From Pseudomonadota bacterium (GTDB lineage Bacteria > Pseudomonadota > Alphaproteobacteria > GCA-2731375): a stretch of 64,000 nucleotides of DNA. Made by a program: the position numbers and the translations under genes. Below are positions 5,078-43,331 of this stretch, piece by piece. Every line of letters starts with the position of its first letter. Position 1 is the first letter of the stretch. The stretch lies in assembly GCA_027623205.1 (NCBI GenBank), contig JAQBYC010000005.1:310-64309 (forward strand), read 5' to 3'. Under the pieces are notes generated by a model. That model saw only the letters and a program-made list of their open reading frames with translations. It was not told the origin of the DNA and ran no database searches.

Positions 5078-6592
5078 ATGACAAAACGCGGTTCAGTGGC
5101 GGCGGCCCTGCTGATTGCTGGTATTTTGTGTTACGGCTGGGCAGCCGCCGCGGCTAGTCCCAAGCCAACCTTCCGCGATTATTTCGAAGCCGCGGTCCGT
5201 ACCGCCGACAGCGGCAACCAAAACATCGAAAATCGCCGCCGCCGGATAGTCGCGGCGCTGTCGCCGTTGGTTACGCTGGCTATTGTGCAACAACCAGGGC
5301 AAATCGACGCCATCATGGGCGCACTGGTCGCCGCCGCGCCGGACGTCGCCCCGGCAATCGCTGAACAGGCCATGACGGAGTTTCCCGGTTTTGCGGGACA
5401 AATTGCGGATGCCGCCGGCCTGGAAAGACCTCATATGGCGGTGATGCCAAGCGTTGTGCCCGCGAGGTCAACGCCCTTCCCACGTAGCGAACCTACCGTC
5501 CGGCGCGCCAACGGACATACGGCCCGCACCTCCGCCTGGGCGATCTCGGCCATCGCCGATAATCCAGGCGCGTTGGACGATATCATGAGCCGCGCCATTG
5601 CCGCGGCCCCAGGCGGTGAGATGGACCTTGTCGCAGCCACGCAGGCGGCCTATCCCGGCTTCGCGCCGCAAATCGCCGCGGCCGCCGCCGCGCCACGCAC
5701 CGTGTCCCGCCCGCCTTTGACATCAACACCCGAAATGCGGCCCCCGGAAAGATCCCGCGCCGCCGCGCAATATTCGGCAAAACGGCAACCGATCGTGCGG
5801 CCTACTGAAGCGCCGGCCCCGGTGGCGCGGGCCCCCGTAACGTACCAAGCCAAGGCACCAAACACCGCCGCGCGGAAAACGCCCGCGGCCCCGGTCGAGA
5901 CGGCGCAACCAGCTGTCGCCGAGGACGATACTATTGAGATCGACGATCCGTTGGAGCCGATGAACCGGATCATCTTCGCGTTCAACGACACACTCGATTT
6001 GATCCTGCTGCGCCCCATCGCCATAGGTTACAACTGGATTTTGCCTGACGTGGCCCGTGAGGCGGTGCGGCGAGCCGCCTTGAACCTGGATGCCCCGGTC
6101 ATCGCGGTCAACGATCTGTTGCAGGGAGACCTGGCCGATGCCGGTGTCGCCCTGGGCCGCTTTGGCATCAACACCACCATCGGCTTTTTAGGTCTGCTTG
6201 ACCCGGCGGCAGACTTTGGTTTGAAACGCCATCATGCCGACTTTGGCCAGACCCTGCACAGCCATGACGTAGGCGCCGGCCCCTATTTGGTCCTACCCCT
6301 GTTGGGCCCGGCCAGCACCCGTGGCGGTGTTGGCAAGTTGGTGGATATCTTCTTCCAGCCCATGACGTATTTGTTGAGTACCGGGCAAAATCTGGGCGTC
6401 GCCGCAACACGCGCCGTGGTCAGGCGCGAGGAACTGCTGGATCCGCTGGATGAATTGCGTGAAAACTCCATCGATTATTATACCGGCCTGAAAGCTGCCT
6501 TCTGGCAGGCCCGGCAGGTGGAGTTGAACAAGGGTACCTTGGTTGGCCTGGGCAATGGTGGTGCCGACAAGTTGTTCGACGCCGCCAATTAG
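5078..6592 (+). CDS. mlaA: MlaA/VacJ family protein with long N-terminal extension
   Basis: C-terminal VacJ domain from ~5942: DPLEPMNRIIFAFND, RFGINTTIG, ADFGQTL, GPYLVLPLLGPAS.R; about 290 aa of extra N-terminal sequence. Confidence 0.88.
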   Translation: MTKRGSVAAALLIAGILCYGWAAAAASPKPTFRDYFEAAVRTADSGNQNIENRRRRIVAALSPLVTLAIVQQPGQIDAIMGALVAAAPDVAPAIAEQAMTEFPGFAGQIADAAGLERPHMAVMPSVVPARSTPFPRSEPTVRRANGHTARTSAWAISAIADNPGALDDIMSRAIAAAPGGEMDLVAATQAAYPGFAPQIAAAAAAPRTVSRPPLTSTPEMRPPERSRAAAQYSAKRQPIVRPTEAPAPVARAPVTYQAKAPNTAARKTPAAPVETAQPAVAEDDTIEIDDPLEPMNRIIFAFNDTLDLILLRPIAIGYNWILPDVAREAVRRAALNLDAPVIAVNDLLQGDLADAGVALGRFGINTTIGFLGLLDPAADFGLKRHHADFGQTLHSHDVGAGPYLVLPLLGPASTRGGVGKLVDIFFQPMTYLLSTGQNLGVAATRAVVRREELLDPLDELRENSIDYYTGLKAAFWQARQVELNKGTLVGLGNGGADKLFDAAN

Positions 6593-40452: not shown

Positions 40453-40689
40453 ACCATCTTCTGGACTGACTCTCCCGCCCGCTCCTCCTTCCAGCCACGC
40501 CCCAGTAGCTCCTGGGATCATAGTCCCCTGTGTGGCCGGGGAGCGGGTGGCCTGGTCACCCGATGAAAATCGAAAACTTTTGGCGCACACTCTGACAATT
40601 TTGGTTCGTCTTCCCATGGCCCTCAAATAGAGCATGGCCCCCTCGCGGTATTTCCGCCTAGTATCAACGAGGAATATTGGGAGCGGACC

Positions 40690-41361
40690 ATGGCAGAGAT
40701 TAGTTATCCGGCGGACTGGCGCGACATTCCGCCCGCGCAATTCGAAAGCATGCTGCTGACGCCGGCGCAATATACCGCCATGCGGGCGGAACGCCTGGCG
40801 CGGGAGGAGGCCGCACCCGAGGTAGGCCAATTGGCGCCGGACTTCGCCCTGGAGCGGCTCTCGGCGGAAGGCAAGCGGACCGGCGAGTTGGTTGGCCTGT
40901 CGGACAGTTTTTCAGGGGCCCGGGGCCGCCCGGTCGGCCTGGTCTTCGGCTCCTACACCTGACCGCCCTTTCGCATTCAGGCCGTGCGCCTGAACGAGAT
41001 CGCGGGACAGTTCAAGGACCGGGTGGATTTTTATTGCATCTATATCCAGGAAGCCCACCCCAATGACGGTTGGCAGGTGCAGCAAAATCTGGAACAGAAC
41101 ATCATCCTGAATGCGCCCGACACGATCGACGAGCGCGCCGCCATCGCCGAGGTCTGCATCCTGCGCCTGAACATGGCCATGCCCATGTTACTGGACGATA
41201 TGACCGATCAGGCGGACAGGCTGTATAACGCCCTGCCGGAGCGTTTGTACCTGATCGATGACGCCGGCGTCGTGCGTTTCAAGACCGTGGCGGGTTCCAG
41301 GGGCTTCAAGCCCGAGGACTGGGCCGCGGCCATTGCCGATCTGGTGGGGCCGCCAGGTTAG
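40690..41361 (+). CDS. Iodothyronine deiodinase-like selenoprotein (Sec at codon 91, UGA 40960-40962), 223 aa
   Basis: ORFs 40690..40962 and 40984..41361 share one frame and join as APDF...RPVGLVFGSYT-UGA-PPFR...YIQEAHPNDGW...YNALPERLYLI, the deiodinase motif set (FGSxTUPPF, YIxEAHxxDGW, ERLY). Confidence 0.9.
40971..40997 (+). promoter_or_regulatory. Bacterial SECIS-like hairpin
   Basis: UUCAGGC-CGUGC-GCCUGAA perfect 7-bp stem (40976-40994), extendable by UCG/CGA; loop begins 20 nt after the UGA and has GU at loop positions 2-3. Confidence 0.7.
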
Positions 41362-41381: not shown

Positions 41382-42254
41382 ATGGAAAAACAATCGGTGC
41401 CGCGGGGCATCATCTACGTCATCCTGTCGGCCATGGTTCTGGTGCCCATGGTGTCGGCCTCGATCAAGCATCTGGGGCAAAGTTATGGCGTCGTGGAAAT
41501 TGTCTGGGTCCGGGCCCTGGGGCAGACCGTGTGGATGACGGCGTTGTTGGTGCCACGCCATGGCTGGCGGATCTTGCGGCCCCACCGCCTCGGCCCCCAG
41601 TTGCTTCGCTCGGGCGTCCTTTTTTTCTCCACCATATGCTTTGTTTTCGGCATCAGGGCCGTACCGTTGGTGACGACCCATGTCATAGGCTTCATCGCGC
41701 CGATGATTGTCGTCGCCCTGTCCGCCGTATTCCTGGCGGAGCGGATCAACGCCGCCCGATGGATTGCCGTGTTCGGGGGTTTCCTCGGAGTCCTGATTGT
41801 CTTGCAACCGGGCCTGGATGGGGCCCTGCCCCCGGCCTCACTGTGGCTGCTGGCGGGCGCCGTGGGCTGGGCGGTGGTGCAAATACTCAGCCGCCGGATC
41901 GCCAGCCACGACCGTTCGGAAACCACGGCGATTTACACCTATGTGGTTGCCCTGGCTGTCATGACGCCCCTGGTCCCCGGCAGTCTGGATTTTTCTTTCT
42001 CGCCCAGGGCGGGCGACTGGCTGGCATTCATTCTGATCGGCCTGGTGGGCGGCATGCGCCATTATTGCAGTATCAAGGCCTATGCCCTGGCGCCGGCCTC
42101 GATCATCGCGCCTTTCAACTATACCGAACTATTGGGCGCGACCCTGGTCGGGGCGATCGTGTTTGGCAGCACCCCGGACGCCGCGACCTGGTTGGGCGCG
42201 CTGGTGATCATCGCCGCCGGGCTCTACCTGGTCTATTGCGAACGCCGTGGCTAG
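41382..42254 (+). CDS. DMT/EamA family transporter
   Basis: 10 TM; LAERI..RWIAV..GFLGVLIVLQPG, APASIIAPFNY. Confidence 0.9.
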   Translation: MEKQSVPRGIIYVILSAMVLVPMVSASIKHLGQSYGVVEIVWVRALGQTVWMTALLVPRHGWRILRPHRLGPQLLRSGVLFFSTICFVFGIRAVPLVTTHVIGFIAPMIVVALSAVFLAERINAARWIAVFGGFLGVLIVLQPGLDGALPPASLWLLAGAVGWAVVQILSRRIASHDRSETTAIYTYVVALAVMTPLVPGSLDFSFSPRAGDWLAFILIGLVGGMRHYCSIKAYALAPASIIAPFNYTELLGATLVGAIVFGSTPDAATWLGALVIIAAGLYLVYCERRG

Positions 42255-42368: not shown

Positions 42369-43331
42369 GTGACGGCACACAAGCACCTGACGGAGCCCAC
42401 GGACTTCGGCGATGGGCAATATCCCCACGCCCTGGTCAACGTCACCAATGTCTGCAACCTGGATTGCCGCCATTGTTTCGTCTTTCGCGCCGACAATCCG
42501 AACGCGCCCCGGGACAAGATGAGCGACGCCACCATGCTGCACCAGTTGGCGGTGCTGCGGGACAAGCATGGTATCCGGTCCATGCTGTTCATGGGGGGCG
42601 AGCCGATGATCCGCAAGGATCTGGTCATGCGGGCAACAGAGCTGTTTCCTGAAAGCGCCATTGTCACCAATGGCACCTATGGCATTCCATCGGTCCCCGG
42701 TCATCTGGTTACGGTTTCCCTGGACGGGCCGGCGCATTTGAACGATCCAATCAGGGGCGAGGGCGTCTTTGCCAAGGTGCGCGATGCAGTATTTGCCCGC
42801 GATCCGGCTGATGGCACCACGGTCATGCTGCAAATGGCGGTAACCCGCGAGAATGCCCCCGGCCTGGAGGAATTCATGGCCGAGGTCTGCGATTGGCCCA
42901 TCTCCGGCGTTGCGTTCAGTTTTTACGTGCCCGTGAAAAATGATACCACGGGCCTGGATTGGCCGGATCTGAGGGAACGGGACAAGGTTCTGGACAGGGT
43001 CATCGCCCTGAAGCGGCAATACCCCCAGGTCATAAAATCAAACATCCCCACGCTGGAAATGATGAAATCGGACGTCGCCCTGCAGTCAACCGGTGAAAAC
43101 GGCGAACATTGCATCCTGCGCCGCGACACCCTGCCCCTGTATATGGGCGAGGGCGGTCAGTTCGAGAAACCATTCTGCTGCTATGGCAACGATGTCGATT
43201 GCACCGGCTGCGGCGCCTATGCGGTGTTCAACCGGGCCTATTTGGACGCCCAGGGCCGGGGCAAAGCCGCACGCTATGGCCACGATGGAGCCGCCAAACT
43301 GGCGGCCTTGGAAGGAAGTGCGGCGGACTGA
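42369..43331 (+). CDS. Radical SAM protein with Cys-rich C-terminus
   Basis: CNLDCRHC, GGEP, TNGT, VSLDG; C-terminal HCIL..FCCYGNDVDCTGCG. Confidence 0.9.
   Translation: MTAHKHLTEPTDFGDGQYPHALVNVTNVCNLDCRHCFVFRADNPNAPRDKMSDATMLHQLAVLRDKHGIRSMLFMGGEPMIRKDLVMRATELFPESAIVTNGTYGIPSVPGHLVTVSLDGPAHLNDPIRGEGVFAKVRDAVFARDPADGTTVMLQMAVTRENAPGLEEFMAEVCDWPISGVAFSFYVPVKNDTTGLDWPDLRERDKVLDRVIALKRQYPQVIKSNIPTLEMMKSDVALQSTGENGEHCILRRDTLPLYMGEGGQFEKPFCCYGNDVDCTGCGAYAVFNRAYLDAQGRGKAARYGHDGAAKLAALEGSAAD

Follow-up and report, generated by a model that had tools for sequence, protein, structure and literature searches.

We found that positions 40690-41361 (forward strand) of the window, the 64,000-nucleotide stretch of contig JAQBYC010000005.1 analysed here, most probably hold a single intact gene for a soluble thioredoxin-fold enzyme of 223 residues belonging to the deiodinase family (PF00837), in which residue 91 is predicted to be selenocysteine (Sec) inserted by recoding of a UGA codon. 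From the sequence comparisons described below, we put the probability of this reading at about 0.93. When the TGA at 40960-40962 is read through, translation gives 223 codons followed by a TAG stop. The sequence around the TGA reads GLVFGSYT-U-PPFRIQ, and YIQEAHPNDGW (41041-41073) and ALPERLYLI follow further on. A first-pass annotation, made from the letters of this DNA alone, had named both of these downstream motifs, and each was read where it had been reported. The same annotation held that the open reading frame (ORF) caller had split the gene at its Sec codon, and the standard ORF listing indeed gives two pieces, a 90-residue ORF ending in FGSYT and a GTG-started ORF of 125 residues (40984-41361). 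The N-terminus MAEISYP is kept in the 14 orthologues described below.

The assignment to the deiodinase family was supported by both sequence and structure. The Pfam profile T4_deiodinase (PF00837) matched residues 26-210 at 87.1 bits, against a cut-off of 27 (E 1.5e-24), together with a weak match to AhpC-TSA (PF00578) at 28.7 bits against a cut-off of 26. Among solved structures, the best phmmer hits were mouse Dio3 (4tr3, E 7e-16) and Dio2 (9h48, E 1.9e-13). The first-pass annotation had placed FGSYT-TGA-PPFR in frame at the Sec position of animal deiodinases, and in these alignments the TGA column does fall on the Sec residue of the two mouse enzymes, labelled 'SeCys->Cys' in both crystal constructs. 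An AlphaFold2 model built from a 64-sequence alignment had a mean predicted local distance difference test score (pLDDT) of 94.2 and a predicted template modelling score (pTM) of 0.89. A Foldseek search against the Protein Data Bank (PDB) returned Dio2 (9h48, E 1e-12, TMt 0.82) and Dio3 (4tr3, E 2.7e-12, TMt 0.76) as the top two, and the runners-up, DsbE, ResA and peroxiredoxin (Prx), followed at about 1e-8, roughly four orders of magnitude behind. By inspection of the sequence and the model, the N-terminal 45 residues are polar and helical, without a hydrophobic stretch.

Conservation of the TGA was analysed by a six-frame search covering 61 related genomes. Matches were found in 22 of them, and in 18 of the 20 other genomes of the same genus. 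In each of the 28 near-full-length matches there is exactly one in-frame TGA; a single match has a TAG in addition. Fourteen are 69-100% identical to the protein of the window and the other 14 are 43-47% identical; the latter set represents a second paralogue, which is also present in the window's genome. There it lies at about 5100-5795 on the minus strand of G000:C5 (L042), with 44% identity, the motif FGSYT-U-PPFR and the same hairpin spacing and loop, and its clade is found in most genomes of the genus. The codon alignment comprised the 19 genes with loci returned, i.e., 14 orthologues and five paralogues; the C-terminal-only copy L036 was left out. The TGA stands in one column in all 19 genes, at 43-100% identity and across the two paralogous clades; together with the E-value of the Pfam match, this is well outside what chance would give. 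The Nei-Gojobori ratio of nonsynonymous to synonymous substitution rates (dN/dS) was 0.166 upstream and 0.126 downstream of the TGA for the 14 orthologues (91 pairs), and 0.169 and 0.126, respectively, for the five paralogues (10 pairs). Constraint beyond the 'stop' is no weaker than ahead of it.

More distant homologues were collected by an exhaustive HMMER search of 1.84 billion representatives, which gave 2672 hits at E <= 0.001, and the best 150 were analysed. The Sec column is spanned by 132 of these, with Cys in 123, Ser in seven, Ala in one and Leu in one; the remaining 18 are C-terminal fragments starting right after this column. The alignment at this column, proposed in the first-pass annotation as a check for Cys or Sec, therefore came out as Cys in 123 of 132 homologues. 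That annotation had also reasoned that a residue other than Cys would make the gene a nonsense pseudogene. Nine of the 132 do have Ser, Ala or Leu, yet all orthologues keep the TGA under purifying selection. The columns of the active site are well conserved in the 132 homologues (G in 127, S or N in 130, T in 114, C in 123, F in 115 and R in 124), as are those of the relay motif (Y118 in 131, E121 in 131, H123 in 129 and W128 in 101).

The records in the protein databases were surveyed with the 120 best hits in a collection of 5.8 billion proteins. Eighty-four of them are shorter than 150 residues (122-147 amino acids) and are C-terminal fragments, most of which begin with M/VRLNEI or M/VRLDEI, and those with a name are all called 'hypothetical protein'. 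One of the entries (P0152, 125 amino acids, 99% identity) is the window's own database protein call. None of the 36 full-length hits exceeds 57% identity; at the Sec column, 30 of them have Cys, three Trp and three Ala. The Trp entries (P0169, P0235 and P0239) probably represent a TGA called as Trp. Ala occurs in P0002, P0178 and P0181, one of which is named 'deiodinase-like protein' and comes from a metagenome-assembled genome (MAG) of Acidimicrobiia; if real, these would be forms without a catalytic nucleophile. The full-length gene of the window was not in the protein collections searched. Because such genes are recorded as short fragments, the counts of Sec and redox genes for marine Alphaproteobacteria are underestimated. 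The search for related loci gave 17 loci, each in a marine MAG with the label Alphaproteobacteria or Rhodospirillaceae. In an even sample of genomes within the class, PF00837 was above its cut-off in 11 of 401 genomes, with one TGA in eight of the 20 match rows, and no match was obtained in 14 control genomes.

These data bear on whether the TGA could be a true stop, in which case the locus would be a nonsense pseudogene or two small genes, one for the 90-residue N-terminal piece and one for the 125-residue piece from the GTG at 40984. The abundance of C-terminal fragments among the nearest database proteins (84 of 120) resembles what two small genes would give, and two related genomes have C-terminal-only copies corresponding to residues 97-222 (G006:C11 and G015:C112). 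We nevertheless consider a true stop extremely improbable: all 19 aligned genes keep the TGA over the whole range of identity and in both clades, purifying selection acts equally on the two halves, and both halves make one thioredoxin-fold domain (model pLDDT 94). In addition, the break coincides exactly with the catalytic column, which is Cys in the homologues, and the genome holds a complete Sec machinery together with a selenocysteine insertion sequence (SECIS), as described next.

Bacterial SECIS elements are described as stem-loops immediately downstream of the UGA with a small apical loop containing G (PMC1088965, in the text available). The SECIS-like hairpin that the first-pass annotation had reported here, with its loop 20 nt past the UGA, was recovered: an apical stem (40976-40982/40988-40994) encloses the loop CGUGC, and exactly 20 nt separate the loop from the UGA. 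The RNA past the UGA folds at -24.2 kcal/mol (z = -2.77), and two of 200 shuffled sequences were as stable. In an alignment of the 60 nt from the UGA in the 19 sequences, RNAalifold gave a core stem of five pairs around the invariant loop CGUGC, with no core pair broken in any of the 19. Compensatory changes affect three of the five core pairs (C-G to A-U, G-C to A-U and G-C to U-G). For the full structure of 16 pairs, 82.9% of the cells can pair, against 24-41% in slid registers, and the covariation score was 0.124 as compared with 0.056 in shuffles, none of 500 being as high.

Several points weigh against the strength of this hairpin evidence. A count of three covarying pairs was also reached by 23 of the 500 shuffles, and the lower stems are unpaired in 5-8 of the 19 sequences, the paralogue clade keeping only the 5-bp core. 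One of the aligned sequences was itself the source of the structure under test, and all 19 sequences are close kin. Furthermore, since the hairpin sits in conserved coding sequence, its conservation is partly protein-driven. An Rfam scan with E up to 10 returned no SECIS family, only five noise hits at 11-17 bits.

Comparison within the genome agreed with the predicted element. The second paralogue has the UGA, 20 nt, a CGUGC loop and a stem of at least 5 bp, and the genome's selD has the same 20-nt spacing between UGA and loop, with the loop CGUGCU. Of 96 TGA-N20-CGTGC sites genome-wide, three have a stem of at least 5 bp, and two of the three are the deiodinase-like genes; the third has only 10 open codons upstream. 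This exact pattern was rejected as a genome-wide finder of selenoproteins, being too narrow and having missed selD with its 6-nt loop. In the proposed mechanism, SelB carrying Sec-tRNA(Sec) would bind the hairpin directly past the UGA, and Sec would be inserted in place of termination.

The same comparison was used to weigh a readthrough of the UGA without Sec, by a near-cognate tRNA for Trp or Cys or under a reassigned code. Three database homologues carry Trp at the column, as noted above, and these are most simply explained by a gene caller run with a TGA = Trp code; in no full-length homologue among the best 150 representatives is Trp found there. TGA is the true terminator in nine of the 19 aligned genes, and therefore the codon is not reassigned. 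The position and loop of the hairpin match the SECIS of the genome's selD, and a redox fold with Trp as its catalytic residue would have no activity. Readthrough of this kind is thus very improbable, and Sec recoding at the UGA, as predicted from sequence, is well supported.

The window's genome (5.0 Mb, 228 contigs, 96.9% complete) was searched for the genes of selenium metabolism. selA (582 bits) and selB (399 bits) are adjacent on contig C213 and score above their cut-offs, as does selD (391 bits), which has its own in-frame TGA at GGG-U-GSK (G000:C63). A tRNA-Sec was detected both with Rfam (68 bits, likewise above its cut-off) and with ARAGORN (tRNA-SeC, anticodon tca). The first-pass annotation had expected the host to encode the Sec machinery, and selA, selB, selD and tRNA-Sec were all present in the genome. 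A second selD-like gene (G000:C163, 262-2538) encodes 758 amino acids with a pyridine-nucleotide-disulphide oxidoreductase domain fused at the N-terminus.

The host belongs to an uncultured marine alphaproteobacterial genus, and its candidate selenoproteome is large. A loose hairpin rule, designed to demand GU at loop positions 2-3, gave 219 sites, mostly noise, from which 20 with recurring motifs or long frames were picked by hand and scanned with Pfam. Since the sites were picked by eye, the resulting count should be taken as incomplete and subject to bias. The scan yielded about 17 further candidate Sec genes, each with an in-frame TGA followed by a hairpin with a GU loop: seven of the UGSC family (PF24696), five with the motif U-P-x-x-H-Q-T (two with weak GRDB matches of 22 and 33 bits and three without a match), two CMD/AhpD-like with CxxU, two of the AhpC/Prx type and one Rdx/SelW-like. 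Three of the 20 picked sites were discarded as apparently false; one has its TGA ahead of an acyl-CoA dehydrogenase domain, and two match no family.

The chemistry of the enzyme was considered from the residues around the predicted Sec91. The relay residues of Dio2 are given as Ser127, Thr129, Tyr157, Glu160, His162 and His182 (PMC11592359). Five of these six are kept here, as S88, T90, Y118, E121 and H123, and are nearly invariant in the family. The Sec91 selenolate would lie at the N-terminus of helix 92-108, flanked by these five residues, and would attack an electrophilic atom of a small substrate to form Se-X. Cys156 would then resolve Se-X to a selenenyl-sulfide, which could be reduced by thioredoxin or glutaredoxin. 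The Sec91-Cys156 selenenyl-sulfide is proposed because Cys156 tends to accompany Cys or Sec at column 91. Cys156 is found in 94 of the 123 homologues with Cys at this column and in two of the nine without it (96 of 132 overall), as well as in 17 of the 18 presumed Sec fragments and all 19 relatives, the kin not being independent observations. On these comparisons, we rate the odds of a Sec91/Cys156 redox cycle as about even.

The following observations speak against this cycle or against a deiodinase-like mechanism. The sixth relay residue, corresponding to Dio2 His182, is Pro143 here, and Pro is found in 104 of the 132 homologues. Twenty-nine of the 123 Cys-form homologues are without Cys156, which moreover lies eight residues ahead of the position aligned with a Cys of Dio3 that we take to be Cys239. 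As for the substrate, the gene neighbourhood was tried as a clue and set aside, as no functional link or partner could be drawn from the close, distant or paralogue loci. Finally, Cys in Dio gives about 1000-fold lower dehalogenation than Sec (PMC11592359, likewise from the available part). An ordinary redox role is favoured by the fact that most family members use Cys, a poor nucleophile for dehalogenation.

Alternatively, the enzyme would not be a dehalogenase but would act as a peroxidase of the peroxiredoxin-like type or as a thiol-disulfide oxidoreductase, in which Sec91 would be converted to a selenenic acid or a mixed Se-S species and recycled via Cys156. Peroxiredoxins have an active-site motif with Pro at -7 and Thr or Ser at -3 from the catalytic Cys. 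The protein has Ser88 at -3, but Leu84 at -7, and Leu is present there in 128 of the 132 homologues. The weak AhpC-TSA match and the place of DsbE, ResA and Prx as next structural neighbours behind Dio2 and Dio3 are in line with this function, as are the use of Cys by most homologues and the suggestion of a redox function in 2005 (PMC1088965, in part). The candidate Sec genes of the Prx type (two), the AhpD/CMD-like and the SelW-like genes also suggest a redox-defence selenoproteome. On the other side, the T4_deiodinase profile is far ahead (87 versus 29 bits), and the T-U dyad and YxxEAHPxDGW, which are deiodinase-specific, are conserved family-wide. We regard the peroxidase or oxidoreductase function as a possibility to be held tentatively.

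The substrates can be graded in a similar manner. One tentative proposal is that the enzyme strips iodine or bromine reductively from an activated aromatic ring, by analogy with the animal deiodinases, and conservation of the deiodinase-specific elements points this way. A peroxiredoxin-like reaction on a hydroperoxide or another oxidant is rated as equally likely; such peroxide or thiol chemistry would suit a family in which Cys forms predominate and a host selenoproteome with a redox-defence character. Some other substrate is rather improbable. Thyroid hormones are unlikely substrates because Dio3 His219 and Arg275 correspond to Pro143 and Ala201 here. We consider it unlikely that the two paralogues are true reductive dehalogenases in the full sense, i.e., cytosolic, cobalamin-independent and oxygen-tolerant Sec enzymes that would act on different marine iodo- or bromo-halophenolics via Sec91-X and Sec91-S-Cys156 and would belong to an unusually large selenoproteome of about 20 Sec genes. 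If true, this would add a new enzymatic route to the ocean organohalogen cycle; in a survey of marine halogen cycling (bioRxiv 10.1101/2025.05.17.654656), the words 'deiodinase', 'selenocysteine' and 'iodotyrosine' do not occur.

The features of the locus are collected in Table 1.

Table 1. Features of the deiodinase-like locus, in window coordinates.
Feature	Position	Strand	Basis and remarks
Shine-Dalgarno-like GGGAG	40679..40683	+	6 nt ahead of ATG; read directly from the sequence
Whole deiodinase-like selenoprotein gene (predicted)	40690..41361	+	ATG 40690, predicted Sec codon 91, TAG 41359-41361; Pfam PF00837 over residues 26-210
Active-site motif G87-S-Y-T-U-P-P-F-R95	40948..40974	+	Dio3/Dio2 alignment; column conservation in homologues
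UGA, predicted Sec codon 91	40960..40962	+	Same column in 19/19 aligned genes; Cys in 123/132 homologues; downstream dN/dS 0.126
Predicted SECIS hairpin	40963..41005	+	Apical stem 40976-40982/40988-40994, loop CGUGC 40983-40987; lower pairs 40969-40973/40995-40999 and 40963-40966/41002-41005
GTG-started 125-residue fragment	40984..41361	+	Gene-caller output replacing the full gene; ORF list; 99%-identical database protein P0152
Y118-I-Q-E-A-H-P-N-D-G-W128, deiodinase proton-relay and loop-D edge motif	41041..41073	+	Dio3/Dio2 alignment; relay residues as in the available part of PMC11592359
Cys156, candidate resolving cysteine	41155..41157	+	Cys in 96/132 homologues, 17/18 presumed Sec fragments and 19/19 relatives; putative resolving role
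EamA-family transporter gene	41382..42254	+	Starts 20 nt past the stop; Pfam EamA 83.7 bits; downstream in 5/10 close orthologous loci

The local gene order is Sua5-UPRT-flagellin-DIO-EamA-radical SAM-SDR, with synteny at the genus level that includes insertions and losses. The EamA gene may be co-transcribed with the deiodinase-like gene. A promoter and terminator scan gave no promoter-like site and two terminator-like sites, a number no higher than that of shuffled sequences, with neither site between the gene and EamA. The radical SAM gene two genes downstream (42369-43331, forward strand) has a Cys-rich C-terminal part and is present in five of 10 close loci. The distant orthologues adjoin genes for an enoyl-CoA hydratase, a DUF1330 protein and an MR/MLE enzyme; in five of five loci, an EamA gene (36-38% identity) lies on the opposite strand there, and the paralogue is divergent from an acyl-CoA dehydrogenase gene in four of five related loci. 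Near one distant orthologue (L054 4540-6081, minus strand), a DUF1330 ORF and an MR/MLE ORF lie in one frame with a single TGA between them; these are most likely two adjacent genes. C-terminal-only copies (residues 97-223, no TGA) followed by a radical SAM copy were observed at L057 1325-1705 and L059 577-957, and also at G006:C11 and G015:C112, and one locus has a tandem pair of radical SAM copies (L045 9088-11028). The C-terminal and radical SAM copies suggest local duplication in the region.

The closest characterised structures, Dio2 and Dio3, share the fold with this protein (TMt 0.82 and 0.76, respectively), the Sec at the same place in S-x-T-U-P-P-F, and the Tyr, Glu, His and Trp of YxxEAHPxDGW. 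The identity is only about 26-27%, and inspection shows no counterpart here of the N-terminal membrane anchor of the animal enzymes. At position -2 from the Sec, Dio3 has Cys, whereas this protein has Tyr, and Tyr or Phe is found in 104 of the 132 homologues. Dio2 His182 (Dio3 His219) is replaced by Pro143, and Dio3 Arg275, proposed as a substrate clamp, aligns with Ala201. The SECIS of Dio2 and Dio3 is an element of the 3'-untranslated region, whereas the predicted bacterial SECIS lies within the coding region. With the peroxiredoxins and AhpC-TSA proteins, the protein of the window shares the thioredoxin fold and a nucleophile at the N-terminus of a helix, and a distal resolving Cys is plausible; it differs from peroxiredoxins in the deiodinase-type insertion and the T-U dyad, and in having Leu at -7, where their active-site motif has Pro. 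Membership of NCBIfam NF038285 ('deiodinase_rel', a hypothetical equivalog of 347 positions) was examined and rejected, as the score of 172.7 bits is below the 250-bit cut-off. The likeness is confined to the C-terminal deiodinase domain (profile positions 169-340), and the N-terminal part of the profile, about 168 positions, has no counterpart in this protein.

The gene is a member of the known bacterial family of deiodinase-like selenoproteins and adds no new kind of system. Zhang, Fomenko and Gladyshev reported such selenoproteins from the Sargasso Sea in 2005, with Cys homologues and a bacterial SECIS, and suggested a redox function (PMC1088965). The Global Ocean Sampling (GOS) study of 2008 lists 22 Sec sequences, and a further column of 21, which we take as Cys homologues from a passage without column headings (PMC2398784), and reviews of 2022 and 2026 list the family without a function (PMC9312934, PMC13188914). 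The parts of these sources that were available, in particular PMC1088965, PMC2398784 and PMC13188914, agree with the first-pass annotation that deiodinase-like selenoproteins occur in marine metagenomes and have no known substrate. A literature search, with subscription journals outside its coverage, found no biochemical characterisation of a bacterial PF00837 protein. The family is still without a known substrate about 20 years after its discovery. This locus is a usable start for a test of dehalogenase versus peroxidase function: the protein is compact and soluble and has a candidate resolving Cys, the SECIS is clear, and a second paralogue can be compared with it. In practice, the locus is of use for annotation and as a candidate for initial biochemical assays. 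The gene resembles the prokaryotic family in being bacterial and marine, in its UGA at the Sec column of deiodinases, in its Cys homologues, and in a predicted SECIS that follows the UGA closely and has a G in its small apical loop. It differs in the active-site motif: the reviews (PMC9312934 and PMC13188914, in the parts available) give UxxC, whereas the sequence here is U-P-P-F, with Cys at +3 in one of the 132 homologues. The candidate partner Cys lies 65 residues downstream instead, and there are two paralogues per genome in this genus.

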